From: an uncultured Gemmataceae bacterium
GTDB lineage: Bacteria > Planctomycetota > Planctomycetia > Gemmatales > Gemmataceae
Assembly (NCBI GenBank): GCA_963750165.1
Contig: CAVVPN010000004.1
Span: 704,001 to 768,000 of the forward strand
Length of the DNA stretch: 64,000 nt
Direction: 5' to 3'
The position numbers and the translations under genes were made by a program. This document shows, in pieces, positions 1-56,944 of this stretch (the first letter of the stretch is position 1; each line of letters starts with the position of its first letter). The notes under the pieces are model-generated. The model was not told where the DNA came from and made no database searches. It worked only from the letters and a program-made list of their open reading frames with translations.

Positions 1-3000
1 CCGCTGCTCGGGTCCGCAATGTTCAGCGTCAGCGAACCGGACACGCTGACGAAATTGCCCTGCGTGAAGTTGAGGGTGACGCCTTCGAGCGTCTCGTCAA
101 TCGGCGCCCCGGTGTTGTTGAAGTTCAGGGTCAGCGAAGCTTGCAGGACCACACCAGGGATGCCGACCGCCTGCACCACGCCGCTAGCCGTGCCGGCGAT
201 GCCGGACGACTGCAGCAGGAACAGGCCGCTGCCCTGCGTCAGCATCAGGCCGTGGATCAAATTGGCGGCGCCGTCGGTCTGGCCGAGGGCAACGCTGACG
301 TTGCTGGCGGCGAAGCGGATCACCGTCTGGGCCGGCACCGCCGGGTTGGTGCTGGTGGTCGTGTCCTTCTGGAAGACGAAGTTGCCGGAGATCGACTGGC
401 CGGCGACGGTCAGCTGGGCGTTCGTGGCCGAGACGCGGACGAACGGCCCGGCCGGCACGTTCACGGTCACCATGCTGCTGCCGACCATGACCACCTCACT
501 GACGGCGGTCGGCATGTTGTTGATTTGCAGCGCCAGCGTGCCGCTGAGCTGGAAGTTCGCGGCCGATTGACCGGCGTTGACCGTCGCCTGCACGCTGCCG
601 GCCAGGCCCTGGTTCGTCAGGATCAGGGCGCCCGAGCCGTTGGTCAGCGACACCAGGTTGTTGCCGCTGCCGTCCTGCAGCGACACCGTCAACTGACTGA
701 CGGCCACGGTCACCACGCGGCTGCCGTCCGCGGCGGTCTGGGACTGGAAGGTGAAGTTGCCGCTCAGCGTCTGGCCCGCGACGGTCAGCATCAGGCCGGT
801 GCCCGTGACTTCGATGAACGGCCCGGCCGGCACGCTCACGGTCACCGGGTTCAGGTTGGCGTCGTTGACGCTGGCGTTGACCGCCGTGCTGCTCGTGTTG
901 AAGACGAGGTTGAACGTACCGGTGAATCTGGCGTTGGCGCTGGCGGTGATGGTGACGCCGGCGTTCGTCACCTGGCCCGCCAGGCCGGCGCCCGTCAGCA
1001 CGAAGACGGCGCTGGGGATGGTCACCGCGACCAGGGTGTTGGTGCCGTCGCCGAAGGCCAGGCTGACGTTCGTGAAGTCCACGACCACCAGCGTGCTCGC
1101 CGGGTTGGTCGTGGTCTGCTGCTCGAAGACAAAGTTGCCGCTCAGCGTCTGGCCAGCGACGGTCAGCGTGACGTTGTTGCCGGCGACCCGCAGGAACGGC
1201 CCGGTCGGCAGATTCAGCATGACCGTGTTGGCCCCGACCATGAAGCTCTCGACCACCGGGGCGTTGGTGGTGTTGACCGACACGGTAAAGGTGCCGCCCA
1301 GGCTCAGGCTGCTGATGCCGCTGGCGATCGTGGCGCTAAGGGTTCCGGCCAGGCCGCCCGGGGTGATGACCAGGAAGCCGAAGCCGCCCGTCACCGAGAC
1401 GATGTTGTTGCTGCCGTCGCCGAGGCTGAAACTGAGGTTGTTGACGGCGACGCGGACCTGCGTCGCGGTGCCGCTCGGCATCAGGTTGACCGTGCTCTGC
1501 TCCAGGGCGAAGTCGCCCGTCAGCGCGACCGTGTTGGTCGGGCTGAGCTTCAGCGTCAGCGACACGCCGGTGCCCTGGACGCGGAGGTAGGGGCCGGCGG
1601 GCAGGTTGATCACTGTGTGGGTCGTGGTGCCGTTCAGCGTCACCGGGATGGTGTCGTTGACCGGGGCCAGCGTGTTGTTGATCGCCAGGGAGAAGCCGCC
1701 GCCGAAGATGACGTTCGGCGACGCGGTCACCTGCACGTTGGCCGACATCATGCCCGCGATGCCGGCGCTGGTCATCACGAAGTCGCCGGTGCCGGCGCTC
1801 AGCATGGCCAGGCCGCCGCCCAGGTTCAGCGACACGCTGTCGAAGTGGATCGTCAGGACGGTGTTGTTGTTGCTGTCCGTGACCTGGTTGAACGTGAAGT
1901 TGCCCATCAGCGTCTGGCCGGCCACCGTCAGGCTCACGCCGCTGGCGACGACGCTGGTGACCATGTTGGCCGTCGGGAACATCACCTGAATCGACGAGGC
2001 CGGGGTCGTGCCGACGGCCGGCAGCACGATGGTCTGATTGACCGCGGCGCCGGTGTTGTTGACCATGACGGTCGCCATGCCGGACAGGCTGACGCCCGAG
2101 ATGCCGATGATTTGCAGCATGCCCGTGGCGGTGACGGCGTAGGTGGTGCCGCTGGTGCCGGCGACCTTGACGACGCCGAGGCTGGCGTTGGTCAGCAGCA
2201 GGCCCTGGGCGGCTGGGTTGATGGTCGTGCCATCAGACAGGTAGACGGGGCCCTGGCCGACGAACAGCGTGATGCCCGTGGCCCCGGCGGTGTTGCCCGT
2301 GACCGCGAAATTGCTCGATTCGACCTCGACGAAGTTGGCGATCTTCAGATGGACGCCGCCGCCGAAGACGCTGATGAACGGCCCGCTCGCCGTGGCGACC
2401 TCGGTGGCGGCGAAGGTGATCGGCAGCATCTGGCCGCCCACCATCAGTGTCTGATTCACCGCCATCGTGGTGGTGTTGATGCGCAGGCCAAGACTGCCGC
2501 CGACGCTGAAGCCGGAGGCCGCCACGCTGATGTCACCGGACAGGCTGCCTGCGATGCCGCCGCCGCTGCCGCTGAAGAGGATGAAGCCGCCCGAGCCGTT
2601 GGTGATGCCGTTGCCCTGGTACGTCACCGCCAGGTTGGCGATGGCGACACTGGTGTAGGTGGCGGTGTGCGTGATGCTAAAGTCGCCGCTGATGACCACG
2701 CCACTGCCGACGTTCAGCTGGCCGCCCAGGACGGTGATGCGCGTGAACGGCCCAGCCGGCAACTGCAGGTTGATGGTGTCGCCGGCCAGCACGATGGACT
2801 CGACGACCGCGACGCTGGTGGTGTTGATCTCGAACTGGATGGTGGTCGCGCTCAGGCTCAGGCCCGGCAGGCTGAACGTCGCGGTGACGGTGACGCTGGC
2901 CGCGACGCCGTTGCTGTTGACCACGAGGAAGCCCTGGCCGCCGGTGATCGTCACATACGGCTGCACAATCTGCACGTGGACGTTGGCGGTTCCCGACTCA

Positions 3001-6000
3001 CTCTTGAGCTTGCCGAGCGTGGTCAGCGTCAGTGTCAGGCCGTCAGCGCTGACGGTGGCCACGGTGTAGGCGCCGTCGTTCTGGGCGCTGCCGGTAATCA
3101 GGATAACGTTGCCCGCGGTGATGCCGTCGGTGATCCAGCTGCCGCTGCTGCGGGTGATGGTGTCGCCGCCGGTGGTGGCGGGCGCGAACGTCAGCGACGG
3201 GGCCGTGCCGGACAGCGCGATCGGACTGCCGGTGTCGCCGAGCACCAGCGACAGGTTGTTGACGGCGACGCGGACCACGCGCTGGCCGTCGCTGCCGGTG
3301 ACTTGCTGGAAGACCACGTCCGCGATCAGCGTCTGGCCGCCGATGGTCAGGTGGATGCCGGTGCCGGTGACAATGACGTACTGGTTGGCCGGGGCCGTTG
3401 TGTCGATCTGCACTTGCAAGTTGGTCGTCAGCAGGAAGCCCGGGACGTTGACCGTCACCGCGCCCATGAAGCTGCCGGCGATGCCCTGGTTGTTGATGGT
3501 GAACATCGCCGTGGCGACCGTGACCAGAACCACCGGGTTGTTGGCATCGCCCAGACTCAGGCTGACGCCGGTGGCGGTCAGCTGCACCACCTGCACGCCG
3601 GCGCTGACCGTGCTCTGGAACGTCAGCGACTGGGCCGTCAGGGCGCTGCCGAGGACGGTCAGTGCGCCGTTGGTCACCGTCACCTGCACGAACGAACCGC
3701 CCGCCGTCACCGCCGGCACCATCACCGTCTGCGTGCCGATCATGAAGCTCTGGGCCGTCGTCAGCGTCGTGGTGTTGACCAGCACCGTGATCGTGCCGCT
3801 GAGCGTGAAGTCGTTGCCGAAGTCCGGGCCGAGCAGCGTGCCCATGGCCGCCCCGGCGATGCCGCCGCCGGTCGCCGGGAACAGGAAATCGAAGTTGCCG
3901 TTTTGCAGGGCGAGAATGCGGCGGCCGCCGGACTGCAACACCAGGCCGAGGTTGGTGCCGGTCACCGTGACGTTACCGCCGCTGTTCTGGAAGACGAAGC
4001 TGTCGGCGGTCAAGCTGTTGCCCAGGACCGTCAGCACGCCGTTCGTCACCGTCACCTGCACGAAGTAGCCGCTGGCCGGCGCGGCGGGGACGGCAACCGA
4101 CTGGCCGCCGACCGACAATGTCATGGCGGTCGTGGTCGTGTTGACCAGCAGCGCCACGGTGCCGGACAGTGTGACGGTGCCGCCAAGGTCCGGGCCGAGG
4201 ACCGTGGCGTTGACCACGGCGCCCGTGACGCCGGCCTGCGTGAACAGGAAGGCGAACGAGGCGTTGCTGATCTGGATGATGCGGGTGCCGCCCGCGGACA
4301 GCAGGAAGCCGAGGTTCTGGCCGGTGACGGTGACGGTGCTGGTGCTGCCACTGCCGCTTGCCTGCAGCACGAAGTCATCGACGGTCAGGGTTTGGCCAAA
4401 GACCGACAGCGTCGCCGGCATGGCGGGCTGCGTGGTCGTGGCCGGAGTGCCGGTCACCTCGACGCGGGCATAGGGGCTGCCCGTTGCGGCCGCGGCGACC
4501 GTCAACGTCTGGCCGTCCAGCGTGAAGGTCTGCACGTCCGGCGTCGTGTTCAGCAGCAACGAGAAGGTGCCGCTCAGCGTGACGCCGGTGATGGCCGGGC
4601 CCTGCACCGCCCCGTTCAGGACCACGCCGCTGAGGCCGTCCTGCGTGAAGCGGAAGGCGAAGTCGGCGCCGCTGATCGCCACGATGCGCGTGCTGCCGGC
4701 GGCCAGCGTGAAGCCGAGGTTCGTGCCGGAGATGTCCACCTCGGTGCCCTGCTTTTGCAGGATGAATTGATCGGCGGTCAGCGTGGCGACGTTGCTCACG
4801 GCCAGCGTCGCGGGCTGACCGTTGCTGCCGTCGATCTCCACCCGCAGATAGGCGCTGCCGACCGCGGCTGCGGCGACGGTGACCGACTGCGTGCCGACCA
4901 TCAGCGTCTGGGCCGTCGGCGTCGTGTTGATGAGCAGCGAGACGGTGCCCTGGAAGTTGATGAGCGGGTTGCCCGAGGCGTCGGTGTAGTCCGGCCCCAG
5001 GACCACTGCGTTGAGCACCGCGCCCGTGATGCCAGCCTGCGTGAACGTGAAGGCGAACGCGGCGTTGCTGATCTGAATGATGCGGTGGCCGCCGACCTGC
5101 AGCAGGAAGCCGAGGTTGGTGCCGGACACCTGCACGCCCGCGGCGTTCTTCACGAAGTCCAGCTCGGTCGCGGTCAGCATGTTGCCGAGCACACCCAGCG
5201 TCACCGGCGTGCCGTCGGGGTTGGCCGTCAGCACCACCTTGACGAACGAGACGCCGCCGGCCGCCGCGGGCAGCGTCACACTCTGGCCGCCGACCATGAG
5301 CATCTGCTGCGTCGGCGTCGTGTTCAGTTGCAGCGACACCGTGCCGGCCAGGGTGACCGCCCCGCCGAGGTCCGGGCCGAGCAGCGTGGCGTTCGTCACG
5401 ACGCCCGCGATGCCGTTCGCCGCCAGGGTGAAGCTGAAGTTGGCGTGCTGCAGGCCGATGATCCGCGTGCTGCCGGCCTGGAGCACAAAGCTCAGGTTGC
5501 GACCGCTCAGGGTGATGCTGGCGTTGCTGCCGGTGCCGCTCTGCTGGAAGTCGATCTCGTCGGCGGTCAGCGTGAAGCCGGGGACCGTCAGCGTCGCGGT
5601 CAGGATCTGCACCTCGACGAACGGCCCGGCCGGCAGGTTGACCGCCACCGTCGCGCCGTTGACGGTGAACGTCTGGCTGACCGCGGCGCCGGTCGAGTTG
5701 ATGGCGATGTTGACGGTGCCGGTGGCGCTGATCCCTGTGCTCGGGGCGATGGTCACCGTGCCGGCCGCCGTGCCCGCCAGGCCCGCGGAGGACAGCAGGA
5801 ATGCGCCCGAGGCTCCGCTCACCGTGACCAGCGGCGTACCGCCCGCCGTCAGCGCCAGGCTGACGTTGCTGAAGGCGACCGTCAGCACGGAGCCGCCCGC
5901 GGGTGTCGTCTGCTGCTGCACGAAGAAGTTGCCCGTCAGCATCTGGCCGGCGACCATCAGGTTCGCGTTGTCCACCTCGACGCGGACGAGCGGGCCGGCC

Positions 6001-9000
6001 GGGACGTTCAGCGTCACCGTGCCGACCGCCGCGGCGATCGTCTGGTTGACCGCGCTGGTGGTCGTGTTGATTTCGAACAACACGTTGCCGCTCAGGCTGA
6101 CGCCGGTGCTCGGGGCGATGGCGACCGTGGCGGCGACGCTGCCCGCCAGGCCGGCGCTGGTCAGCAGGAAGACGCCGTTGGCGTTCGTCACCGACACCAG
6201 GCCGCCGCCCAGGCTCAGGCCGACGTTCGTGAACGTCACCGTCACCACCGGCGTGCCGCCCGTCGTGCTCTGCTGCTGGAACGCGAAGTTGCCCGTCAGC
6301 GTCTGGCCGGCCACCGTCAGCGTCACACCCGTACCACTGACTCGCACATACGGCCCGGCCGGCAGCACCACCAGGGCCTGGGCGCTGGTCGCCGTCTCCG
6401 CCTGGAGCTGGCCAAGCGTCGTCAGCGTCAGCACGGTGTCCGTGACGGCCGCGATGGTGTAGGTGCCGTTGTTCTTCGTGGTGCCAGTGATCTGCACGCT
6501 GCTGCCGACCTGGAAGCCATCGGTGATGAAGCTGCCGGCGCTGCGGGTGATGGTGTCGCCGCCGGTGGTCGCCGCGGCGAAGGTCAGCGACGGCGTGCCG
6601 GTCAGCTGGACCGGGTGGGCGACGTTGACGTTGACCGCGGCGGTGGTGTTGTTGAACTGCACGTGGAAGGTGCCGCCGAAGCTGACGCCGGTGCCGGTCG
6701 CCACGGTCACGGTGCCATCGACCTGGCCCGCCAGGCCGGCGCTGGTCAGCAGCAGGGCGCCTGAGCCGCCGGTCAGCCTCACCAGGCCGCCGCCCAGGCT
6801 CAGGGTGACGTTGGCCGCGGTCACGCTGAAGACACTGGCGCCGCTGGCGTCGGTGGTCTGGCTGAAGCTGAAGTCGCCCGTCAGCGTCTGGCCCAGCACG
6901 CTCAGCGTCAGGCCGGTGCCGCTGAAGGTCTTGACCACCGCCGTCGTCGGGAAGTTCAGCACCACCGCCGGGGCGCCCGGAATCGCGATGGTGCGGGCCG
7001 AGAAGATCTGGCCGGTGTTGTTGAAGTCGATGGTGGCGGTGCCGCTGAAGCTCACGCCCGGGATGCCCAGCACCTGGATCGCGCCCGTCGCCACCAGCGC
7101 GTAGGTGTCGGGGTTGCCGCCGGTGCCGGGGATCTTCACCAGGCCGAACGACGCGCCCGAGAGCAGCACGCCGCGGGCGCTCGGGTTGATCGAACCGTCG
7201 CTGCGCGTCGCCGGGCCCTGGCCGAGGAAGATGCTCGCGTTCGAGACGCCGACCTGATTGTTGCTGAACGCGAAACTGCCCTCGATGGTCACGAAGCCGC
7301 CGAGGTTCAGGTTGCCCTGGCCGAAGAAGCTGAACACGTCCGCGTTCGTCGGGAAGTCAATTACCTGCTGCTGGCCGGCGACCGTCACCGTCTCGTGGAC
7401 TGGCAGGCCGGTGTTGTTGATCGTCAGGCCGATGGTCGCGCTGACGCTGAAGCCCGACGCCCCGATGCCCGCGGTGCCCGACAGCGAACCGGCCAGACCG
7501 CCGTTCTCGATCACGAAGGCGCCCTGGCCCTGCGTCACCCACGTGGACGTGCCGTTCATCACCTGCACGTTGGTGAAAGCGATGCGCGTCACCGTCGTGC
7601 CGCTGGCGTCGGTGCTCTGGTCGATGGCGACGTTGCCGCTGACCGTGAAGCCGCTGTCCGGGCCGCTGCCGCCGAACGTCAGCGACACGCCAGTCGCCTC
7701 GACGCGGACGAACGGGCCGGCCGGCAGGTTGATGACGACGCCGCTGATGCCCGGGGCGTTGATCTCCGCCGCGACCGTCTGCGGCCCCGTGTTCACTTGC
7801 AGGTGAATGCTGGCGGAGCCGGTGAAGCCCGGCAGCGTCAGCGTGGCCATCAGGCTGAAGTCCGCCGCGATGCCGGCGCTGGTGATGCGCAGGCCGCCTG
7901 TGCCACTGGTCACGGACACGATGGCCGGGCCGCCGGCCGGGCCCAGGGTCAGGCTCAGGTTCGTGACCGCGACGGCGACCACCTGGCCCGTGCTGGTCGT
8001 GCCGAGGGCGGGGTCGGGCACGTCGTTGGTCTGCTGGATGGTGAAGTTGCCGGAGAGTGTCTGCCCCAGGGCCGTCAGGCTGACGCCGGTGCCGGTGACC
8101 TGGATGAAGTTGCCCTGCGTGAAGTTGATGGTGGCCGTCGTGCCATCGACCGCGGTGAAACTCTCGTTGACCGGGCCGCTGGTGGTGTTGAAGCTGGCGG
8201 TAAAGTTGCCGGCCAGCGACAGGCCCGGCAGGGTGCTGGTCACCGTGGCGCCCGTCACCATGCCGGCGATACCGCCGCTGGAGAACACCAGGTCGATGGC
8301 GGCGATGCTGACGTTCAGCAGCTGGCTGCTGCCGTCGCCGAGGCTGAGGTTGACGTTGGACGCATGCAGCGTGGCCACGGTCGTCGGCGGGCCGGTGGCG
8401 GGGTTCGCCGTCGTCTGCTGGAAGGTGAAGTTGCCCGATAGCGTCTGGTTCATCACCGACAGCTGCACTCCGGTGCCGGCCACCTGCACGAACGGCCCGG
8501 CGGGCACGGCCACCGCCACCGGAGTGCCGTCCACCATGAAGCTGTCGTTGACCGCCGTGCTGCCGGTATTCACCTGAACCTGGAAGGTGCCGACCAGCGA
8601 CGCCTCGCCGGCGTTCAGCGCCACCGTGCCGCTCAGGGTGCCGGCCAGGCTGCTCGACGTGAGGATGAACGCACCCTGGCCGTTGGTCACGCTGACGATG
8701 GCCGGGCTGCCCAGGCTGAGCGTCACGTTGGTGGCACCGACGCGGATGATCGTCTGCTGGCTGGCGTCGGTGGTTTGCTCGAAGGTGAAGTTGCCGGTCA
8801 GCGTCTGGCCCAGCACCGTCAGGCTCAACGGATCCGCCTCGACCCGCACGAACGGCCCGGCGGGTAGGTTGACGTTGATGGTGGTGGTGCCGCCCATGCC
8901 GTTCGGCACCGTCGCCGTCTGCTGCACCGCGACGCCGGTGGTGTTGAGCGCCAGCGTGATGTTGGCCGAGCCGCTGACGCTGGTGCCGAGCTGCACCGCC

Positions 9001-12000
9001 AGGCTGCCGCTGACCTGGCCCGCCAGGCCCTGGGCGTTCAGCAGCACTGCGCCGCTCACGTTCGTCACCGACACCAGGCCGCCGCCAAGGACCAGGCTCA
9101 CGCCCGAGAACGCGACCGTCAGCACCTTCGCGCCGGCCGTCGTCGTGGTCTGGTCGAAGCTGATGTTGCCGGACAGCGTCTGGCCGAGGACCGTCAGGCT
9201 CATCGAGCCCGAGAAGCTGCGGGCGCCGTTGGCGACCGTGACGCTCGTGTTCGGCACCATCCAGTCGGCGCCGGTGTTGTTGAACTGCACCGTCACTGTG
9301 GCCGGCATGGTCGGCTGGCCCGGGGCGGACAGCGTGACGCCGGGGATGCCCAGCAGGTTCACGTTGCCCGAAGCGTAGACCGCGTAGTCGAAGCCGCCGG
9401 AGGCCATCGCGTCCGTGACGCGCTCGACGTTGACCGTGGCGTTGGTCAGCAGCAGGCCGCGGGCGGTCGGGTTGATGGTCGTGCCGTCCGCGAGATACGC
9501 CGGACCCTGACCGATGAAGACCGTGACGGACGTGCTGGTGACCGTCTGAGTGGTGCCGGTGCCCGTGAAGCTCAGGCTGCCCTCGATCAGGATAAAGTTG
9601 CCGATCTGCAGCACGCCGTTGGCGAGGACGAACTGGAAGAGGTTGCCCTCGGCGGCGCTGAAGACGACCGGCAGCGGCGTGCCGTTGACCGTCACCGTCT
9701 GGTTGACGGCGCCGCCGGTGGTGTTGAAGCGCACCGTCACGTCGCCGCCGATCTGGGCGCCGCCGGCCGCCACCGACACCTGACCCGACGCCACGCCGGC
9801 GATACCCGTCGTGGTCACGATGATGGCGCCCTGGCCGTTTTGCAGGCCCTGGCCGTTGACCGTCAGCGCCAGGTTGGTGACGGCGGCGCGCGTGACCATC
9901 GTCCCGTCGGCGGCCTTGCCGCGGTCGAAGACGAAGTCGCCCGTCAGCAGCTGGCCGGCCACCGTCAGGCGGGCGCCAAGGACCATCACTTGCACATACG
10001 GCCCGGCGGCCACGTTCACCGTCACCGGCTGGCCGGCCACCGTGATCGTCTGGTTGACCGCCTGGCTGCCGTTGTTGACCAGCACGCTAACCGTCGTGGC
10101 CGTGAGCGTGACGCCAGGGATGTTGACCGCGAGCGACCCGGAGAAGCTGCCGGCGAGGGCGCCGCTGTTCAGGATCAGGGCGCCGCTGCCGTTCGACACC
10201 GTGACCAGCGCCGTGGTGCCGTCGCCCAGCGCCAGCGTCGCGTTGCTGACCGCCACGGTGACGACACGGTTGCCGGCGGCGGTGGTTTGCGACTGCAGCA
10301 CAAAATTGCCGGTCAGGCTCTGGCCCGCCACCGTCAGCGTCAGGCCGGTGCCGGCGATCTGCAGGTATGGGCCGGCCGGCACGTTGATTGGGACCACGAC
10401 GCCGTTGACCGTCACCGAGTCGTTGACCGCCGTGCTGGTCGTGTTGATTTGCAGGGCGAAGGCACCGGCGAAGCTGACGCCCGTGCTCGGGTTGACCGCC
10501 ACATTGACGCTCGCCTGCCCGGCGATGCCGGCTGCGGTCAGGAAGAAGGTGCCGGTGCCATTGGTCAGCGTCACGAAGTTGGTGGTGCCGTCGCCCAGGC
10601 TCAGGCCGACGTTGGCGAAGCTCACCTGCACCAGCTGGGTGCCGGCGGTCGTGGTCGTCTGCTGCGCGGTGAAGTCGCCGGTCAGGGTCTGGCCCAGCAC
10701 CGACAGCGTGATGCCGGTGCCGGCCACCATCACGTACTGGCCGGCCGGCAGGTTCAGGGCGACGTTGCTGGAGCCGATGGCGATCGTCTGATCGACCGCG
10801 GCGCCGGTGGTGTTGATCGACACCTGGAAGCTGCCGCTGAAGGCGACGCCCGGCACGTTGACCGTGACCGCGCCGCTGAAGGTGCCCGCCAGGCCGCCGC
10901 TGCCCAGCACGAAGAAGCCGCTGCCGTTATCGACGCTCAGCAGGGTGTGCGTGCCGTCGCCCAGGCCGAGGTGGATGTTCGTCGCCGCGATGCTGACCTG
11001 CGAGCCGGTCTGCTCCAGGGCGAAGTTACCGGTCAGCTGGAGGTTCTGCAGGACGATCAACTGGGCGTTGGTGCCCTGCACCATCAGGTACGGGCCGGCC
11101 GGCAGGTTGACGCTCAGGGTGGTGTTGTTGAGCGTGACCTGCTCGTTGACCGCGGTGGCTGCGGTGTTGATCGACACGCTGAAGCCGGCCCCGAACTGCA
11201 CGGCCGAGCCGCCGCTGACGCTCAGGGTGCCGGTCACGGTGCCCGCGAAGCCGGCGCTGCTGGCGACGAACACGCCGCTCGCGTTCAGCAGGCTGACGGT
11301 GCCGCCGCCCAGCACCAGCGAACCGTTGGCCAGCGCCAGGGTCAGCACCTGGTTGCCCGTGGCGTCCGTCGCCTGGCTGAAGCTGAAGTCGCCGGTGAGG
11401 GTCTGGCCGAGGACGCTGAGCCGCAGGCCGGTGCCGCTGAAGCTGGCGACGTTGGCGGCGGTCGCGAAGGTCACCGGGTTGCCGGTGCCCGTGAAGGCCA
11501 TGCCCGTATTGTTGAACTGGATGGAGACGGTGCCCGCGAGCGTGACGCCGGGGACGCCGAGGAGTTGAACCTGACCGGTGGCTTGCAGGGCAAAGGTGTT
11601 GGGGCTGCCGTTGGTGCCGGCGATCTCCACCAGGCCGATGGTGCCGTTCGTCAGCAAAACGCCGCGGGCCGTCGGGTTGATGGAGTGGAACGGATCAGGT
11701 AGCTGGGGTGGGCCGCGGCCGAGGAACAGCGTCACGCCGGTGCCGCTGAAGGTCTGCTGGCCGTTGTTGTTCGTGAAGCTGACGCTGCCCTCCAGCGTCA
11801 CGAAGTTGCCGATGGTCAGGCTCACGTCGCCGGCCGACACCGCGATGAACGGCGCGGTCGTCGCCACCTCACTGCTGCCGAACTGGATCAGGATCGGTTG
11901 ACCGTTCAGGGTGATCGTCTGATTGACCGGGTTCGGCGTCGTGTTGAAGCGGACGTTGATGGTGCCGCCGGCGCTCGAGGCGCCCCTGCGGCCGCGGCGC

Positions 12001-15000
12001 TGATGTCGCCGGACAGTACGCCCGCGATGCCGCCGCCCGTGCCACCGAACACCACCAGGCCGCCCTGGCCGTTGGCGATCGTGAGGTTCTGGCCGCCGGA
12101 CGATGTGTTCGCGAAGACGTTGGCGGCGCCGACGCGGACGGTGCCGCTGGCGTCCTGGTCGAAGCTGAAGTCGCCGGTCAGCGTCAGACTGCTGCCAATC
12201 GCCAGCTGGGCGCCGAGGGCCGTGACACGGACGAACGGGCCGGCAGGCAGGTCGAGCGTCGTCGTGGTGCTGCCGATGGTGAACGTATCGTTGACCGGCG
12301 TGCTGGCGGTGTTGATGTCGAAGCGCACGGTGCTGACGGTGAGGGTCGCGCCCGGCAGCGTCACCGCGGCGGTGGCGGCGAAGCTGCCGGCGACGCCGAG
12401 GCTGTTGACGGTCAGGGCGCCGCTGCCGCCCGAGACCACGACCACGCCGTTGCCGATGTTCAGCGTCAGGCCGGCGACCGCGACCTGGAGTTCCCGGCGG
12501 CCATCGGAGGTGGTCAGCACCTGCAGCGTGAAACTGCCGCCCAGGGAGAGGCCGGCGGTGTTCAGCGTGGCGCCGCTGGCGCTGGTCACGGTTACCGACC
12601 GGGTGGCCGAAACGGTGTCGATGGTCACCGTGAAGCTGCCGGCGAACTGCATGCCCGGCACGTTGACCGCGACGCTGCCGGTGAAGGAGCCGGTGACACC
12701 CTGGGGCGTGATCGTCAGGCTGGCGGAGGCGATGCGCACGTCGGCCAGCGAGGCGCCGCCGGTGCCGAGTTGCAGGTCGGCGTTGGTCGCGGTCACCAGC
12801 ACGTTGTCGCCGGACTTCTGGAAGGTGAACTGATCGGCGGTCAGGCTGCTGCCGAGGATGGACAGTGTGCCCTTGGCGACCGCGACCTCGACGAACGGAC
12901 TGCCGGCGGCTGCGGCCGGGACCGAAACCGACTGGCCGGCTACCTGCAATGTCGTGGCGGTCGTGGTGGTGTTGACCAGCAGCGACACGGTGCCGGCGAG
13001 GGTCAGATTTGGCAGCGCCGGCCCCTGGACGGTGGCGTTGACGACGGCGGCGGCGACGCCCGCGGCGGTGAACTGCGCGGCGAACGAGGCGTTGCTGATC
13101 GACACGATGCGCTGCGTGCCGGCCTGGAGCAGGAAGTTGAGGTTGGTGCCGGACACCGCCACGCCCGTGGCGTCCTGCTGGAAGACGAACTGGTCGGCGC
13201 TGAGGGTGTTGCCGGCCACGGTCAGGGTCGCCGGGGTCGCGTCGGGGTTTTTGCCGATGACGACCTGGATGAACAGAGTGCCCGGGGCGGAGGCGGGCAC
13301 GGCCACCGTCTGGCCCGCGACGACCAGGTTGCGGGCGGTGCCGGTGTTGTTCAGCAGCAGCGACGCGGTGCCGGTCAGGCTGACGCCGAGGCTCGGGTCG
13401 GGGCCGTTGATGGTCGCGTTGAGGGCGGCGCCGACCAGGCCGCCGGAAGTCAGCAGGAAGGCGAAGTCCATGTGCTGCAGCTGCACGATGCGCGTCGCGT
13501 TGGCGTCGAGTTCAAAGCTCAGGTTTTGACCCGAGACCAGAATGCCCGTCGCGTTCTGCAGGAAGTCGATTTCGTCCGCCATTAGCGTGAAGCCGCCGAT
13601 CCGCAGGAAGCCGGAGATGACCTGCACCTGCAGCAGCGGCCCGGCCGGCAGCGTGACCGTCGCGCCCGTGGCGCCGGTGAAGGTGTGGAAGTCGGCGGTG
13701 GTGTTGATCGCCAGGGCGAAGGTGCCGCCGAGGCTAATGCCCGTGCTCGGCGCCACCGTCACCGTCGCCAGCGCCTGACCAACCAGGCCGGCCGTGGTCA
13801 ACTGGAACGTGCCGGCGGCGTTGCTGACCGTGACCAGGGCGCTGCCGCCGGCGGTCAGTGCCAGGCCGGCGTTGGCGAAGGTGATCGTCACCGTCTGCAC
13901 GCTCGCGGTGTTCTGCTGTTCAAAGGTGAAGTTACCCATCAGCGTCTGGCCCGCGACCGTCAGCACCAGGTTGGTGCCGGTGACGCGGACGAAGGTGCCG
14001 GCGGGCAGGTTCAGCGTGATGGTATCGGCACCGACCTGGAGGCTCTCGTTGACGGGGGCGCCGGTGGTGTTGAAGCTGACCGTGAAGGTGCCGCTCAGGC
14101 TGACACTGGGCACGGCACTGGCGACCGTGGCGGTCAGGCTGCCGGCCAGGCCGCCCATACTATTAATGATGAGGAAGCCCTGACCGTTCGTCACGTTCAC
14201 CAGGTTGTTGGTGCCGTCGGTCAGGCTGAAGCTGACGTTGCTGGCGGCGATGCGGATCTGCGTGTCGGTGCCGCCCGGCAGGTTCGCGGTCACCTGCTCC
14301 AGGGCGAAGTTGCCCGTCAGGGTGATGGTGTTGGTGGCGCTGAGGTGGATGGTCAGCTGGGTGCCGGTGCCGGCGATGCGCAGGTACGGCCCGGCCGGCA
14401 CGTTGACCATGACCACCGCCTGCACCTGGGCGCTGGCGTCCGTCTCGTTCTGGACCTGGCCCGAGATGGTGAGCGTCAGGACGGTGGCAGTCAGCGAGGC
14501 GACGGTGAAGGCGCTGTTGTTCTGGGCGGTGCCGGTAATCTTGATGGTGTTGCCGGCCTGGAAGCCGTCGGTGAGCCAGCTGCCGGCGCTGCGGGTGATG
14601 GTGTCGCCGGTGATCGCCGTGGCGAAGGTCAGCGCCGGACTGCCGGTCAGCTGGGCCGCGGTGGTCAGCGTCGTGGCCACGGCCGCCGGGGTGGTGTTGA
14701 TCGTCACGCCGAAGCCGCTGCCGAAGGTCACCGCGCTGGACGCGAAGTTGATCGTTCCAATCATGCTGCCGGCCAGGCCGGCGCTGGTGAACACAAAGTC
14801 GCCATTGCCGGTCAGGGTCAGCAGGTTGGACCCGCTGCCGAGGTTGGCGGCCACGTTGCTGAAGTGGACCGTCAGCACCTTGGTGCCGCTGCTGTCCGTG
14901 CCCTGACCGAACGCAAAGCCACCGGTCAACGTCTGTCCAGAAAAGCTCAGCGTGCCCGAGGTGACGCCGACGCTGGCGATGGTGATGGCGCCGGTGTTGT

Positions 15001-18000
15001 CGAAGGCGACCGATACGCCGCTGGCGGCGAGCGTCAGGCCAGGGATGCCGACCAGGGAAAGGTTGGCCGCCGTGGCGGTGAGGACGTAGGTGCCGGAGGT
15101 GGTGCCCTGGGTGACGCTGCCGTTCGCCCCCGTCAGCAGCAACCCCTGGGCACTCGGATTCGGGATCATGCCGCCCATGCCGTCGGGAATCGTCGACGGC
15201 CCCTGACCGACGAACAGTGTCACATTGCTGAGGGTGAAGGTGGAACCGCCACTGAAGCTGACCGTGGCCTCGATCTGAACAAAATTCCCCAGGTTGAGGC
15301 TGCCGGTGCCGACGAACGTGAAAGTGTCCGTGGCGGTTGGGAAGTTGATGGTGAACGTGCGTCCGTTCAGATTGATCGTCTGATTGACCGTCTGTCCCGT
15401 CTTGTTGAATTGCAGGCTGATCTCGGCGCCGACGGAGAAGTTGCCGGAGGCCACGCCCGCCTGGCCGGAGATGACGCCGGCGATGCCTGAACCGACGATC
15501 ACGAAGGCGCCGCTGCCCTGGGCGAGCGTCTGGCCGTTGAAGACCACCTGCAGGTTGGTAACCGCGACCCGAGTGATGGGGTTGTCGCCCGCGATCATGC
15601 TCTGGTCGAAGGCGAAGTTGCCGGTCAGTTGCGTGCCGCTGCCCGCCCCGCTGCCGAGGGTGATGCTGGCGCCCACCACCTGAACGCGGAGATACGGGCC
15701 TGCCGGCACCTGGATCGGCGTCACGACACCGGCAACCGTCACCGTCTCGTTCACCGCCACCGGGGCCGTGTTCACCTGCATCGTTACGGTACTGGCGCTC
15801 ACCATCACGCCGGGCACGTTGAAGGAGGCGGTGACCGTGAAGCTGGCGGCGACGCCCTGGCTGGTCAGCGCGAGCGAGCCGATGCCGTTCGTGATGCTGA
15901 CGTAGGTGACTGTACTGGTGCCCAGTGACAGGGCGGCGTTGCTGACTCCGAGCAGGACCAGCTGGCTGTTGTCCGCCGCGGTCGTCTGCTGCAGGGTGAA
16001 GTTGCCGCCGAGCGTCTGCTGCTGACCAGCCGGACCTAGTTTCAGCGCCACCCCGGTGCCGACGCTGGCGACGCTGAACGTCGGCGTCGCGGTCGTTGTG
16101 TCGATCTGTACATTGAAACTGCCGTTCAGGGCGACGTTCGGGACGTTGACCGTCACGCTGCCAGTGAAGTTGGCCATGATGCCGGCAGCCACGACGTTTA
16201 ACGTACCGCTGGCGACGCTGACATCCGCCAGGTCGTTGGTGCCGTCTGTCAGTCGCAGGGCCAGGTTCGTCGCCGTCACCTGAGCGCCGCTCGCGGACTT
16301 CGTGAAGGTGAACGAATCCGCAGTCAGGCCGTTGCCCAGGATTGTGAACGTTCCTCCACTGACATTAACGTTCAGGTACGTGCCTGGCGCCGCGGCCGGC
16401 ACGGTGATCGACTGTCCATCCACGCTCAGCGTTTGCACCACTGGCGTGGTGTTCACCAGCAGCGACACCGTCCCCGCCAGGGCCAGCCCCGGAATCGAGG
16501 GCCCCGTCAGGGTCGCATGGTTCACTGCTCCCAGGATGCCGTTCTGGCTGAACTGGAAGGTGAACGACGCATCCGTGATTTGCAAAATCCGCTGCGACCC
16601 CGCCTGCAACAGCAGACCGAGGTTCGTACCGGACACCTGTACTTCCGATCCGTTCTTCTGGAAGATGAACTGGTCGGCAGTCAGGCTGTTGCCCAGGACC
16701 GTCACACTCGCCGGTGTGGTGGTTTGCCCGGTGGTGGTCGGCCCAAGGACGACCTGCACGAAACTACCGCTGGTCGCCGCCGGCACCGGCACCGTCTGCG
16801 TGCCGATCGTGAACGTTTGACCGGTAGGCGTGGTGTTCAGGTACAGCGACGCCGTGCCGGACACGGTGATGCCGAGACTGGCGTCCGGTCCGGTCAGGAC
16901 CGCACCGAGGGCGGCGCCAGCCAACCCGGTTGGGGTTAGCAGGCCGGCGAAGCTCATTTGTTGGAGGCTCAGGATCTGCGTTGGTCCGGCGCGGGTGATG
17001 TAACCGACGTTCACGCCGGCGACAGCGATGCCGGTGCGACTTTGCTGGAAGGTGATCTCGTCCGCGGTCAACGTCTGGCCGGCGACCGTCAGCACGGCCG
17101 CCTGGGCCTGCACCTGCACCACCGGGCCGGCGGGCAGGTTCACGAGTACGGGCGATCCGTTCACTGTGAACGTCTGATCCACCGCCATGTTGGTCGCGTT
17201 GACGCCGATCTCGAAGTTGCCGGTCACGCTGACGCCGCTGCCGGTCGCGACCTGCACCGTGCCGGCGACCTCGCCCACGGCACCGCCGGTCGTCAGGATC
17301 AGCGCCCCGCTCGCCCCGGTCACGGTCACCAGCGGTGTCGCGGCGGCGGACAGCGCCAGCCCGGCGTTGGCGAAGGCAATGGTCACTGTGGCGGTGTTCG
17401 CGGTGGTGAACTGCTGGATCACAAAGTTGCCGGTGAACGTCTGTCCGGCGACCTGCAACGCGGCGTTGTTGACCTGAAGCTGGACGTAGGGGCCGGCCGG
17501 CAGGTCGATCTGCGCGGTGCCGGCCGTCAGGTTGATACCCTGATGAACGTCCGTTGAGAGTGTATTGATGGCCAGCTGGAAACTGCCCGTCAGGCTAACG
17601 CCGGTGCCGGGCGCGAAGGCCACCGTGGCGCCGGCCAGGCCGGCAATGCCGCCGCTGTTCAAAAGGAACGTACCGCTGGCGTTCGTCACCTGGACGAGGT
17701 TGCTGTGCCCATCGCCGAGGTTGACCTGCACGCCGTTGAAGGCGACGGTCACGACCTTGCTCAAATCGGCGTTGGTGTGCTGTTCAAAATTGAAGTTCCC
17801 CTGCAGCGTCTGTCCATCGACCAGTAGCGACACACTGCTGCCGGTCACGCGGACGTAGGGGCCGGCCGGCACGCTGACCGTGGCAGCGGAGTTGACGCCG
17901 AAGGCGAGCGCCGTGTTGACCGCCGCTGTCGAGGTGTTCACTGCCACCGTGAAGGTGCCGCCGAGGCTGACGCCGCTGGCGTTCAGGCCGACCGTGCCGC

Positions 18001-21000
18001 CCAGGCTGCCGGCAACGCCGGCGCTCGTCAGCAGCAGGGCGCCGCTGCCGTTGGTCAACGTCAACAGGTTCGCCGTCGTGCTGTCGCCCAGGTTCAGCGC
18101 CGCGTTGCCCGCGGTGACGGCAATGATGCTCTTGCCGCTGGCATCGGTGCCGGTACTGAACCCAAACGTACCACTGAGCGTCTGTCCAAGCACATTGAGA
18201 CCAAGGGTGCTCTGGAAGCTCTGCGTGCCGTTCGGCACGACCGTGGTCGGCACCAGGCTGGGGACGGTCCAGGCGGTGCCGGAGTTGTTGAACTCGACCG
18301 TCGCGCTGGCGGTCCCGGTGCCCGTCGGTCCCGTGAGGCTGACGCCGGGGATGCCCAGGAACTGCACGTTGCCGGTGGCGTAGACGGCGTACTGACCAGT
18401 CGTTGCGAACTGGTGGGCGTAGACGCTCGCCCCCGACAGCAGCACACCGCGAGCGCTCGGGTTGACCGAACCGTCCGCCTGCGTCCCCGGACCCTGACCG
18501 AGAAACACGTTCAGGTTTGTGCCGCTGAACGAACCATCACTGGCGAAGGTGACGGTGCCCTCGATGCTCACGAAGTTGCCGATCGTCACCCGGCCGGAGC
18601 CGTAGAACTCGAACAGGTCGGCGCCGGTGGTGAACTTGATTTCCAGGGTGCTTCCGTTCAGGTTGATCGTGTCATCGATCGGCGCCCCCGTCTTGTTGAA
18701 GCGCAGCCCAATAGCGGCTCCGGCCGTGAAGCCGTTGACCGCCACCGCCGCCACGCCGGACACGTAGCCGGCAATGCCTGTACTGGTGACGATCAGTGCG
18801 CCTGTACCCTGACTGAGCGATTGCCCAGCGATGGTCGCCTGCAGGTTGGCGATGGCGACGCGCGTGGTCGTGACGCCGGCGACGCTGCTCTGGTCGAAGG
18901 CGAAGTCGCCGGTGAGCTGGGTGCCGGTGCCGGCGCCGGTCGCGTTGACCGTCAGCGTGGCACCGATCACCTGCACGCGGACGAACGGGCCGGCCGGCAC
19001 CTGCAGCGCCAGTGGCACCCCGTCGATGTTCAGGGATTCGGACTCCGGCACAGGCATCGTGTTCACCTGCACGGTGACCGCGCCGGCTGTGACCGTCACG
19101 CCGGGGACCGTGAAGGTCGCCGTGGCGCTCACGCTCGCGGCCACGCCCTGGCTGGTGATCAGAAAAGCACCGCTACCATTCGTGACACTGACGTAAGTGT
19201 TCGTGCTGTCCCTGAGCGTCAGGCTCACGTTGCTGGCGCCGACCTCCACCAGCTGGCTGCCGTCGTTGGCGATGATCTGCTGGACCGTGTAGTTGCCCGT
19301 CAGCACCTGGCCGCCGACCGTCAACTGCTGGCCGGTGACCGTGGCCTGGATGCTCTGATGGTTCGGGTCGGTGGTGTCGATGGCGACCGTGAAGTTGCCG
19401 GTGAAGGACACCCCGGACAGGTTCACCAGCGCCGTGGCACTGAAACTGCCCTGAACGGACGTTCCGGAGAACTGCCCGTTCACCATGCGCGCCGCCAGCG
19501 TGAACTGCGCCGTGGTGCCGACGTTCTGCGTCAACTCGACGAGCGGATTCGTCCCATCCGTCAGCACCAGCATGGCGTTGGCAATCGTCAACTGTACACT
19601 GTTCGTGCCCTGCTGGAAGGTGAAATCGCCCATCAGCGTCTGGCCGAGCAGTTGCAAGTTGACGCCCGTACCGCTCACGACAAACGTCGGCGTCGCCGCC
19701 AGGGCGAGCACGACCGGGACGCCGCCGACGCTGAACGACTCGTTGACCGCGGCGCCGGTGTTGTTCACCGCCACCTGGAAGTTGCCCCGCAGGCTCACGC
19801 CCGGGGCGTTGACGGTGACCGTCCCGCCCAGGGTGCCCGCCAGGCCGGCGCTGTTAATCAGGAACGTACCTTGACCGTTGTTCACATCGACGAGGGCGTT
19901 CGTGCCGTCGCCCAGGGCCACCGTCACGTTGGAGGCGGCGACCTGTAGCACCGCATGACCGGCGCTGGTCGTGATCGACTGGAACCCGAAGTTGCCCGAC
20001 AGCGTCTGCCCCGCGACCGTCATCTGAACATTCGTCGCGTTCACTTGCAGCAGGGGGCCGGCTGCCACATTGACGGCCATTGTCGTACCGCCCACCATCA
20101 CGCTGTTCTGATAAGCCGAGCCGGTGCTATTGAGCACGAAGCTCACGTCACTGCTGGCCGTGTTCAGCTGAATCGCATTGGTCGTTGTCAGCGCGATACT
20201 GGCGTTCACCTGCCCAACCAGGCCGTCCGGCGTCAGCAGCGCCAGACCGCTGCCGTTGGTGATGGTCAGCGCCCCGCCCGGGCCGAGGTTGACGCCGACG
20301 TTCGCGAAGGCCACGGTCAGCACCTGCTGACCATCGGTCGTGGTCGCCTGATCGAATGTGAAGCTGCCGTTGAGCGTTTGCCCAAGGACGTTCAACCCCA
20401 ATGTGCCCTGGAAGCTGCGTGAACCTCTGGCCACGGTCGTGCCGATGCCCGGCACCATCCAGTCGGCGGCGGAGTTGTTGAACTGCACCGTCGCGGTGGC
20501 GCCGGCCGCCAGGCTGACGCCGGGGACGCCCACCAAACTCACGTTCCCCGTGGCGTACAGAGCGTAGTCCAGGCCGCCGGGTGTGGCACTATCCGTGAAC
20601 TGCTGGGCATGCAGCGTCACGCCGGTCAGCAGCAGGCCGCGGGCCGTCGGGTTGGGCGTGGTGCCGTCGGCGAGGTAGGCCGGGCCCTGCCCAAGGAACA
20701 GGCTCGCGTTGGTGACGGTCAGGTTGCCGTTGGTGTCCACGCTGACGGTGCCGTTGACCGTGACGAAGCCGCCAATGTTCAGGCTCGCCCCACCGGCCGT
20801 CAGCGCGATGAACGGTGTGCTGCCGTTGGCCGCCTCGTTGCTGGCGAAGACGAGCGGCAGCGCCGCTCCGCCGGTCGGGACCGATGTCTGATCCGGCACC
20901 GGAATCGTTTCGTTGACAGCGCCGGGGGTGGTGTTGATGCGCAGATCGAGGTTGCCGCCGAGCTGGAAGCTGCCCACGTTAGCGGACACCTGCCCCGAGA

Positions 21001-23178
21001 AGATGCCGGCCACGCCATTGCTCAGCACGACCAGCGCCCCGTGGCCGCCGCTCAGCGCCCCTGGGTGCCGACGGTCGCGGCCAGGTTCGCCACGGCGATG
21101 CGCGTCACGCTGCCGGTGCTGGTGCCGGTGCCCTGAATCTGATCGACGAAGAAGTCGCCCTGCAGCACCTGGCCGCCGACGGTCAACTGCGCATTCCGCG
21201 CCACCACCTGAATGTGCGGCCCGGCCGGCACGTTCACCTGCACCGACTGGCCGCCGACCGTGAACGTCTGATGGATGGCGGCGGACTCGGTGTTGAACTG
21301 CACCTGCACCGTCGTGGCCAACAGCGACACGCCGGCCGCACCACCGATGGTCAGCGTTGGGCTGCCCGAGAAGCTGCCCGCGACGCCGTTACTGTCGAGG
21401 ATGAACGCGCCCTGACCGGACTGGACATTGATACCGTTGTGGTTGGCATCCTGCAGGTTCAGACTCGCGTTGGCCAGCGCCACCGACACCACCTGGGCGC
21501 CCGTCGCCGTCGTCACCGCTTGCAGCGTGAAGTCGCCCGTTAACGTCTGTGTCTGTCCGGTGGCGCCCGGCAGCGGCAGCGTCAGCGTCTGGCCCGTGGC
21601 CGCGAGCTGGAAGTATGGGCCGGCAGGCAAGTTGAGCAGCGACGTGGACGCCGTGTTGACGCTCAGCGTGTACGTCCCCGACAGCGCCGCCCCGCCGACG
21701 GCGACGTTCAGGCCGAACGAACCGGTGCCGGCGAAACCACTGCTGCCGAGCTGGAACGTCGCGGTGGCGCCGTTGGCCGCCCCTTGCGGCGCCGTCAGGC
21801 TCAGCAGGGTGTTGCTGCCATCCGTCAGCGTCGCCTGCAACTGCGTGCCGGCGAGCGTGAAATCGAAGCCCTGCTGCGTCGAGGCGGATACCGTCCACTG
21901 GCCGGACAGCGACTGGCCCAGCACGTTCAGCGTGCCGCCGAAAGTCACTGGCGTCGTGATCCTTCCGGCGAGGAAGGCGAAGAAGTTCGACGCCACGCTG
22001 GCCGTGCCGCCGTGGCCGCCGCCGGCGAAGGCGCCTGCACTGATCGCCTTGCCCAGCTGCTGCGCCACCGTCCCCGGCGTGTCCCCGGCCACCGACGTGT
22101 AACTGTACGTCTGGCCGTCCAGCAGCACGCTCCAGACGTGGCCTGCGTTGACCGCGCCGCTGATGGTGAGCGTCGCGGACGTGAAGGCGGTCGCGCTGGG
22201 GGTGGCGGTGATGGCGATGCCGGGGTCCGTGGTCGAGACGCTGGAGGTGCCGCCCGGGTTGGCCGGGTTGCTCGTCAGATCCAGTTCCGAACCCTGCACT
22301 TCCGCCTGGCCGGGCACCTCGGCCACCACCAGGTTGTACACCTTGTTGACCGGATCGAGTTGCGGCTTGAAATACAGCCCGTTGCCAATGCCCAGCCCCT
22401 GGAACTTTGTGAAGTCGCCCGTCACGGAGCCGAAGGTCAGGAATGGGAAGGTGTCGCCGACGGCCGGCTGAAAATTGTTGCCGAGCTGCACTTGCAGCGT
22501 GCCGTTCAGGCTGGCGGCGCCGGCCACCTGCAACTGGTCGTAGCCATCGCCCGCGCCGGCCGCCCCCTTGCCGTAGACCTGAACGACCAGGGTGCCGGTC
22601 GCGGTCTGGCTGTAGGAGGCGAATTGCTGAATGCCCGGCGAGTTGCCGGGGCTGACCACGCCACTGCTGACCACGGGGCCGCTGACGGTGCCGTTGCCGG
22701 TCACCTCGTCCGTGGAGCCGAGCACCAGGGAACCGTCCACGCCGCCGCCCGGCGTCAGGTGGTAGTTGTGGCCGGCAGGCGCCGCCAGGGCGTCGGTGGC
22801 GAAGGCCTGGTCCAGGGCTGACGCTTGTGGCCCGGCCGGGGCGGCCGGTAGCGGCGTATCCTGCGTGAGCCAGTCTCCCGAGGCGAACAGCTGGTCCACG
22901 GCACCGACGGAATTCGGGGGCAGGCTGGTGGGCGTCTGAATGGAGCTGGAGGAAGGTTGCGGTACGGTCAGGTTGTTGGCCGTCACTCCGGTCTGGGTGG
23001 GGAGCACTGGCGGCTGGAGGGGGTTCTCGGGCAAAGCGGGCCCGGTCGGACAGATGCGATCTTCCAGTTGCTCCAGGCGCGGGCGTATCCACTCCCCCTT
23101 TGCGAAGAAGGGGAGCGGTCGCTTCGACTTCGGCGGCGGTTGGCCGTCCAAAGGCTGGTGCAACACGGAGATGGCCAT
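1..23178 (-). CDS. Giant secreted repetitive beta-rich protein (planctomycete LEPR-XLL-type N-terminus), >7,700 aa in window, 3' end beyond window; two apparent frameshifts
   Basis: ATG at 23178; RPRLEQLEDRICP motif near aa 31-43. ORF 21052-23178 joins ORF 11906-21028 if one G is added to the run at 21058-21061, and that joins a frame open from ~11985 to base 1 if one G is added at 11983-11986. The antisense shadow ORFs keep one constant frame from 19 to 11578. The ~100-aa repeat (PAGPY/F..V.G....L.V.GQTL.GNF.F.Q...) runs across both junctions. Confidence 0.88.
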
Positions 23179-39171: not shown

Positions 39172-39349
39172 TTCGCCCCGAAGGGGCGGGACAACTTAGC
39201 CCCGGGCAACGCCCTGGGGACGCCTGAAGGGGCACCCCAAGCGTTGTTGTGGTGCCCCTTCAGGGCACGGAAGAAAGCAGGGTAACAGTCGCCTCCCTGG
39301 TTCCCAGGGCGTTGCCCTGGGCTAAGTTGTCCCGCCCCTTCGGGGCGAA
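39172..39349. repeat. Large nested REP-like inverted repeat
   Basis: 47-bp arms 39172-39218 and 39303-39349 (1 mismatch), enclosing an inner pair cctgaaggggcacc / ggtgccccttcagg. Confidence 0.88.
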
Positions 39350-56600: not shown

Positions 56601-56944
56601 TGGGGGCGCGCGTCAACGACCCGGGCGTGTGGCACCCGTTCACGGCGCGGGCGTCGCAGCTGCGCGATGCGGACGGTCAGTTGCGGTTGACGCTGTTCGT
56701 GCAGGACTGGCGTGGCGGCCCGCAGGAATTCGGCGTCTGCGACCTAACGCGGCCGGCGGCGACCGCGGAGCCGGGCTGGGCGGCCGGGCCGCTGCCGTTC
56801 GCGGACGGGGCGACGTACCAGGGCGGCCTGCGGCTGTGCGGCGTGCAGCGTGTCGAGGTGCGGCTGTCGCTCGGCGATGCCACTTACGGCCCCTTTGTGG
56901 CGGCGCCGACTGGGGGCGACCCGGAGGCGCTGTTGCAGAGCTAG
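53627..56944 (+). CDS. Hsp70/actin-fold ATPase with N-terminal Zn ribbon and beta-rich region (~1,100 aa); two frameshifts (~53850-53885 and 54988-54991)
   Basis: CPVC...HCGLCG; VAIDWGTTNS (phosphate-1), IDEANAVA (connect-1), YDFGGGTID (phosphate-2), FGGDDVT, VLAGGGCRLPLV (adenosine). The three ORF pieces join on single-base corrections. Confidence 0.8.

Follow-up and report, generated by a model that had tools for sequence, protein, structure and literature searches.

The stretch examined here (the window, 64,000 nucleotides, G000:C4:704001-768000) comes from contig C4 of assembly G000 (9.6 Mb, 12 contigs, 65-67% GC), from an uncultured Gemmataceae bacterium. It carries on its minus strand the beginning of a giant gene, and we put at roughly 45% the probability that this gene encodes an exported protein of ~26,500 amino acids (aa) in which ~95 repeats form a curved sheet or groove whose hydrophobic face holds lipid chains. 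The gene starts at an ATG at window position 23178 and ends at G000:C4:647455, a length of 79.7 kb, of which 56.5 kb (G000:C4:704000 down to 647455) lie outside the window. Between C4:727178 and 647455 the gene is covered by six long minus-strand frames that overlap, and the translation, with an X at each of five frame breaks, comes to 26,571 aa with no in-frame stop over 26,566 codons. Residues 1-7,725 are encoded in the window together with two of the breaks, and three further breaks lie beyond it. High GC content at third codon positions (GC3, 0.84-0.97) tracks one frame and changes frame at every break. The protein is of low complexity and rich in G, T, V and A, and a single Cys occurs among its 26,571 aa. 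The 79.7-kb region is very probably one gene. The initial annotation, made from the window alone, had seen a hidden gene of >23 kb running off the edge, G/T/V/A-rich with hardly any Cys or charge; its composition agrees, the gene is real and larger than supposed, and retrieval of the adjoining DNA, as had been advised, located its end. The in-window parts are given below; the third piece had entered the list of open reading frames (ORFs) solely as an open-ended ORF at 3..11867, 3,955 aa.

21064..23178, minus strand: gene piece 1, 705 aa, from ATG 23178 (ORF)
21059..21063, minus strand: break 1, frame switch in a G-run/GCGC context within a repeat unit (frame and repeat register)
11984..21058, minus strand: gene piece 2, 3,025 aa in frame (ORF)
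11982..11983, minus strand: break 2, frame switch in a G-run/GCGC context beside a CTCGAG site, within a repeat unit (frame and repeat register)
3..11981, minus strand: gene piece 3, the in-window share of 5,036 aa read in one frame, cut off by the window edge (ORF)
1..2, minus strand: window edge, where the gene continues into the array remainder, three breaks, the core and the C-terminal mosaic (frames beyond the window)

Residues ~414-13,380 of the giant protein are made up of ~95 units of ~120 aa. A hidden Markov model (HMM) built on 20 seed units gave 92 matches ahead of residue 13,400, with scores reaching 147 bits, and just two matches, at 2.6 bits or less, in five shuffled copies and one reversed copy of the array. 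The count of 95 comprises 84 units and 11 longer variant units, after merging of units split by inserts. Units and guest domains together account for 94.7% of residues 410-13,440, all gaps being shorter than 40 residues, identity among 65 units averages 37% (20-66%), and all 90 repeat matches in the genome fall inside the giant gene. The protein had been described as built from this repeat in units of 100-115 aa; dozens of units are indeed there, but the unit is longer and the array stops halfway along the chain. That the repeat resembles no described family has held up in the pieces scanned: no Pfam family reached its cut-off in 23 array pieces, of 68 aligned members no more than 5 had any one family in common, NCBIfam gave nothing in 7 array pieces, and a search of the PDB by sequence returned two hits, at E 0.56 and 0.61, neither significant. 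Weak Pfam matches of the giant protein (ACD, DUF4827, MG2, NifZ and others) lay below cut-off and were rejected, and PF22692, exactly at its cut-off (27 bits) with no passing stretch, was treated as noise. No description of the repeat was found in the literature searched, though supplements, which the search did not cover, could list these proteins.

1..21939, minus strand: beta-meander array, ~58 of the ~95 units in the window, continuing to G000:C4:687026 (HMM)
20368-20794, 18172-18601, 14932-15310, 11393-11831, 9170-9617, 6878-7322 and 1904-2360, minus strand: longer variant units (7 in the window, 11 in the array), spanning 1904..20794 and marking a higher-order repeat (sequence)
14422-14644, 6377-6599 and 2972-3203, minus strand: three ~75-aa guest domains in array loops, of 10 copies in the protein (sequence)
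9666..11462, minus strand: five-unit stretch folded with AlphaFold2 on a 68-row alignment, predicted local distance difference test (pLDDT) 93.7, predicted template-modelling score (pTM) 0.86

The five AlphaFold2 models of the last of these stretches had mean pLDDT values of 92.6-93.7 and are almost entirely strand, each unit contributing six long strands, mostly of 11-15 residues in the array, and one short hairpin; a fragment of five units is thus predicted to fold by itself. Mean-field covariation was calculated on two sets, one of 1,836 units with 1,498 adjacent pairs and one of 2,201 adjacent pairs (effective number of sequences, Meff, 1,987). Antiparallel ladders link successive strands, with strand neighbours coupled at z 5-22. 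Of the inter-unit couplings among the 2,201 pairs, the strongest (F96-G10' at z 14.6, S91-T16' at 10.7, A99-S9' at 10.3 and A99-R7' at 10.2) run between strand 6 and the first strand of the following unit. The hairpin is coupled with the polar outer face (V39-E109, A76-V107 and A67-F111). Because strand 6 couples to strand 1 of the following unit, the sheet is read as continuous and not as a chain of sandwiches, and we hold with high confidence that the ~95 units are predicted to join into one antiparallel sheet, the two methods drawing partly on the same homologous sequences and so not being fully independent. With inner and outer positions assigned by us from residue alternation, the inner wall of the 1,836 units is 88% V/I/L/F/M and 0.5% charged, the mid-line floor is 80% G/A, and the outer face is 48% S/T/N/Q and 20% charged. 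Couplings from rim to rim are weak and one-directional, with a mean z of 0.47-0.66 (standard error ~0.2) at +2 to +5 strands; outward residues, taken as a control, gave z 0.01-0.44, and values at negative offsets were about 0. This signal fits a curled sheet with loosely approaching rims, though it lies near noise.

Other repeat architectures fare poorly. The discrete two-layer sandwiches on linkers of immunoglobulin (Ig)-like or cadherin arrays are absent, the sheet crosses unit borders, and no array match passed a Pfam cut-off; a parallel beta-helix or RTX fold is contradicted by the antiparallel ladders, and Gly-rich motifs occur solely after residue 15,900 and under the Pfam cut-off. No Ig or beta-helix fold is among the best 50 structural matches of the five-unit model. 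A continuous single-layer sheet with a hydrophobic face, free of Ig, cadherin, RTX and beta-helix patterns, is what had been suspected from the letters, and AlphaFold on 4-6 repeats, the check suggested at that stage, returned a confident all-beta meander with neither discrete sandwiches nor a beta-helix.

Behind the array lies a core (residues ~13,350-15,900) that is the most conserved part of the protein, with 50 relatives, most of them 45-60% identical, across phyla. AlphaFold2 predicts its centre (566 aa) to be likewise a long meander, into which a helical part is inserted (pLDDT 83.9, pTM 0.56). This core model matched only large beta-barrels, at a root-mean-square deviation (rmsd) of 8-18 Å, which we read as the sign of a long meander and not of a barrel. 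Twenty-four of 30 language-model neighbours of the core are labelled DUF6603 (PF20248; best score 0.93), a lead left unconfirmed by the PF20248 HMM, which matched none of 45 core sequences and none of 5 genomes at E<=1. The C-terminal half also contains six Ig-like repeats (so labelled by appearance), three small domains in 15, 21 and 10 copies, 10 Gly-rich Ca-binding-type motifs, 29 repeats of ~62 aa and a DUF4214 end (E 4.8e-14). To set the protein apart from a standard adhesin, as had been done, was too sharp, the second half being an adhesin-like mosaic.

Relatives are numerous and scattered. A GTDB search with the single protein found nothing, whereas a 13-row alignment of the core gave 180 stretches; the 80 listed, assigned to phyla by us from their record titles, come from Actinomycetota, Planctomycetota, Verrucomicrobiota, Alpha- and Betaproteobacteria, Desulfobacterota, Rokubacteria, Acidobacteriota, Chloroflexota and Elusimicrobiota, and repeats lie upstream of the core in 61 of the 61 listed loci having at least 5 kb upstream. 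The wider search with an HMM of the repeat that had been proposed produced 1,750 matches among 1.84 billion 50%-identity representatives, 515 of them at E<=1e-30 and our own gene piece included. The spread is patchy, with a match in 1 of 40 relatives of this genome. Unbroken relatives include those of Microbacterium sp. F51-2R (12,861 aa) and Oryzobacter telluris (14,483 aa), both from complete genomes, Solirubrobacter phytolaccae (10,364 aa), Mangrovicoccus (13,989 aa) and Sulfuritalea (19,171 aa); a relative on a Burkholderiales chromosome has at least 24,069 aa, its frame still open where the fetched stretch ends. Those of Microbacterium, Oryzobacter, S. phytolaccae and Mangrovicoccus are collinear with the giant gene from array through core. 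The Sulfuritalea and Burkholderiales proteins (L112-L116 in G047 and L117-L121 in G046) have three units each, and the thousands of residues upstream of these may hold other, diverged meander repeats. Enzyme domains occur in some relatives (P0166, P0115, P0162), with a DNA/RNA non-specific endonuclease at E 5.5e-45 and weak M10 peptidase-like matches, and in both complete actinobacterial genomes a beta-helix (PF13229) gene adjoins the giant gene (L093:14031-15437, L097:11083-12522).

The part ahead of the array bears on export and contains three features.

23056..23085, minus strand: N-terminal leader motif, residues 32-41, of the planctomycete LExLEDR type (sequence)
22281..22863, minus strand: domain conserved near the N-terminus, residues ~106-300 (matched by BLASTP in 11 homologues)
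22023..22176, minus strand: small domain with ~20 further copies in the C-terminal half (sequence)

Similar leaders also stand at the start of other giant ORFs in the genome and, together with the types of neighbouring genes, make a planctomycete the likely host. The leader here has no Pfam or NCBIfam match, NF012209 (LEPR-XLL) included, and no hydrophobic signal or anchor helix is present near the N-terminus; both full-start homologues scanned (2 of 2) score above the NF012209 cut-off. Several relatives start with LEPR-XLL, and actinobacterial relatives have segments that look by eye like signal peptides. In the three proteobacterial relatives whose flanks were read (Mangrovicoccus, Sulfuritalea and Burkholderiales) a cassette of GAF-HlyD and SecA_DEAD genes follows right after the gene, with an OEP gene too in Burkholderiales, and this locus type matches the SecA_DEAD-HlyD-OEP locus in the portion of Kamneva et al. 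consulted (PMC4452313). The giant protein is thus likely to be exported, to judge from its sequence and that of its relatives, and the N-terminal leader would direct this. Other giant ORFs of the genome, some of them frameshifted, reach up to 11,412 codons (C3:3184541-3218779, C3:2539511-2566405, C4:235127-259480, C3:3405774-3444477 and on C9); some have the LExLEDR leader and none has this repeat.

We envisage that one chain of ~95 units forms one continuous curved sheet, with six antiparallel strands per unit and strand 6 predicted to pair with strand 1 of the next unit, while the hairpin of each unit would pack on the polar outer face. The sheet would curl along its Gly/Ala floor into a beta-taco, and ~570 strands at 3.5-4.8 Å each would give it a length of ~0.2-0.27 micrometre. 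Outside the cell the groove would bind or carry lipids or other hydrophobic molecules, and the C-terminal mosaic may attach it to cells or surfaces. This reading draws support from structural neighbours that include lipid grooves (LptC, the TamB taco and LptA) and from a core that is also a long meander. The five-unit model was compared with 48,161 chains, with a Z below 8 denoting, according to the tool, possibly no more than a common arrangement; the best 50 matches listed include LptD (Z 6.7, rmsd 29.3, 275 aa), LptC (Z 6.5, rmsd 3.3, 120 aa, and Z 6.1, 3.6, 133), PagL (Z 6.3, rmsd 4.5, 100 aa), the TamB taco 5VTG (Z 5.7, rmsd 4.7, 104 aa) and LptA (Z 5.4, 4.5, 102). By this comparison the listed neighbours are single-layer meanders, tacos and small barrels, whose Z values may reflect the common arrangement only. 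The 50 contain no VPS13, ATG2, BLTP or YhdP chain, which does not exclude them. Whether the modelled groove is open and cargo-holding we regard as an even chance.

Several observations weigh against a lipid groove. Every fold match lies under Z 8, and the highest, MORN1 (Z 7.1, rmsd 7.2, 195 aa), is not a lipid groove. Foldseek, which had been recommended for this purpose, gave 0 matches against PDB and BFVD at E<=0.001, with TM at most 0.18. The large residues of the inner wall could fill the fold. Unlike AsmA-like proteins, the giant protein has no N-terminal anchor helix, its first ~120 residues peaking at a 19-residue Kyte-Doolittle mean of 0.3. The genes scanned beside it are of unrelated housekeeping and transport types with no partner gene among them, and on inspection of ORFs the second SecA_DEAD of this genome lies elsewhere, without visible HlyD neighbours. 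Finally, unit number among relatives ranges from 2 to ~95, as in spacer stalks.

The alternative we take most seriously, though tentatively, keeps the continuous fold but closes the sheet on itself: the hydrophobic face would be the protein's own core, and the array would serve a giant surface adhesin as a rigid stalk of variable length that carries nothing. The range in unit number would suit such a stalk, its companions are of adhesin type (FG-GAP in 6 of 14 homologues scanned, Ig-like and Ca-binding-type repeats, DUF4214), its inner wall is bulky, its composition is of low complexity, and a few weak couplings do run from rim to rim, e.g., L51-V40' and V59-V40', at z ~4. A packed core should, however, give sharp cross-layer couplings of the sandwich kind, and the ones observed do not rise above noise, whereas strand neighbours have z 5-22; moreover, the core after the array is more conserved across phyla than a spacer needs. 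Rather improbable in our view is that the hydrophobic face is buried against another chain, or a distant part of the same chain, in a two-layer ribbon or surface sheath. The large one-sided hydrophobic face would suit such pairing, and a partner lying in variable register would blur the coupling signal, but a single chain is modelled with confidence on its own and the Gly/Ala floor line favours curling of the sheet over a flat form.

The least probable alternative by our estimate is that the five frame switches present in the assembly are real, the gene being in decay, phase-variable or split into several proteins in this organism, for the stop-free frame, the high GC3 throughout and the single-ORF relatives all speak against it, as does the behaviour of the assembly as a whole. 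Switches were called from the assembly sequence alone with a codon-score caller, a rough test in which false calls are possible. Of 729 calls, 559 were same-strand switches without a nearby stop, one per ~17 kb, a rate that the five in 79.7 kb match. They are tied to motifs, with a switch at 21 of 427 testable GGGGCGC sites and at 4 of 15 testable GCTCGAGC sites (in wider windows 9/50 vs 45/4326 at random sites), compared with GGCC 1/1004, CCGG 2/964, ACGT 0/1083 and GAAG 5/989; plain GCGC is enriched only mildly (7/976), and it is the G-run plus GCGC context that matters. Both in-window breaks are at GGGGCGC, and three of the five CTCGAG sites in the giant gene are at breaks. Ordinary genes are also frame-split, among them an RlmI-type methyltransferase and a BcaP-type permease (window ~40835 and ~43335) and the second SecA of the genome. 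Motif-linked switches fit the pattern of long-read error at homopolymers and methylated motifs. That the repeat carries on across two G-run indels had been noted, and rightly: units straddle both breaks and resume in register, at ~21060 with model positions 1-56 then 61-117 and at ~11985 with positions 1-89 then 90-120. Given the motif-linked switch rate across the genome and collinear relatives that are single ORFs, the five breaks are likely to be assembly errors. At about one in-gene switch per 17 kb, findings of split genes from this assembly need caution. GCTNAGC, tried as a break motif, proved wrong, since GCTGAGC switches at 11 of 1433 sites, the background level. CTCGAG (observed/expected 0.19) and CTAG (0.22) are strongly avoided genome-wide, which suggests restriction-modification.

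The repeat can be compared with several known systems. With the AsmA-like or repeating beta-groove (RBG) proteins (TamB, YhdP and YdbH; VPS13 and ATG2) it shares a continuous antiparallel meander of repeats with one hydrophobic face and a length set by unit number. The array, at ~13,000 aa, is about ten times the size of TamB. Actinomycetota such as Microbacterium, Oryzobacter and Solirubrobacter have a monoderm envelope, and their single ORFs hold 31-38 units, so that the repeat is not confined to diderms. No Chorein-N, AsmA or TamB domain was found in 45 protein pieces, the 25 families listed for the 68 aligned members include none either, and the giant protein is fused to adhesin-like domains. 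AsmA-like proteins are described, in the sections of PMC10345924 consulted, as anchored by their N-terminus, as carrying a Chorein-N domain and as forming a groove in the periplasm of diderms, and the eukaryotic RBG unit as five strands plus a loop, where this repeat has six strands plus an outer hairpin. The AsmA/TamB/VPS13-like groove proposed initially agrees with the predicted architecture, while three features of those proteins (anchor, Chorein-N, restriction to diderms) are absent. The Lpt beta-jellyroll bridge (LptA, LptC and the LptD N-terminal domain) supplies the best low-rmsd local matches, LptC at 3.3, but consists of short subunits where the giant protein is a single polypeptide of ~570 strands, shares no sequence match with it, and has no lpt gene among the scanned neighbours of the giant gene. 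Giant secreted proteins of the Planctomycetota-Verrucomicrobiota-Chlamydiota (PVC) group, with the LEPR-XLL or planctomycete leader, resemble it in size class (PMC12673574, in part) and leader motif; the parts of PMC12673574 and PMC4452313 consulted do not describe the repeat or core, and no SecA_DEAD-HlyD-OEP cassette lies beside this gene. A long beta tube is predicted in giant proteins of Omnitrophota (10.1101/2023.11.21.568195, in part), where tubes of ~1,500 aa are RHS-like with outer helices or strands.

Elsewhere in the window, on the plus strand, three features were noted; the latter two may be part of a conflict system.

39303-39347, plus strand: Rfam Acido-Lenti-1 RNA, 42.3 bits against a cut-off of 37
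47258-50914, plus strand: 1,219-aa ORF without NCBIfam match, beginning with what we take to be a tubulin-like glycine-rich motif
55142-56941, plus strand: ORF with a weak DnaK-like match

A broader proposal, which we consider unlikely as it stands, is that these proteins form a widespread unnamed family of exported, bridge-like lipid grooves, each a single chain reaching a quarter of a micrometre at most, by which Gram-negatives and Gram-positives take up lipids or other hydrophobic molecules or pass them on between cells, vesicles or surfaces. If true, a groove architecture known inside cells and across the periplasm would be extended outside the cell, in at least 8 phyla including monoderms. 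Even as a mere stalk, the repeat would add a filament fold missing from the catalogues and represented by 1,750 sequence clusters. Planctomycetes are known to have giant genes (PMC12673574, as far as consulted). Most of these genes lack a known function, and the finding gives them content.

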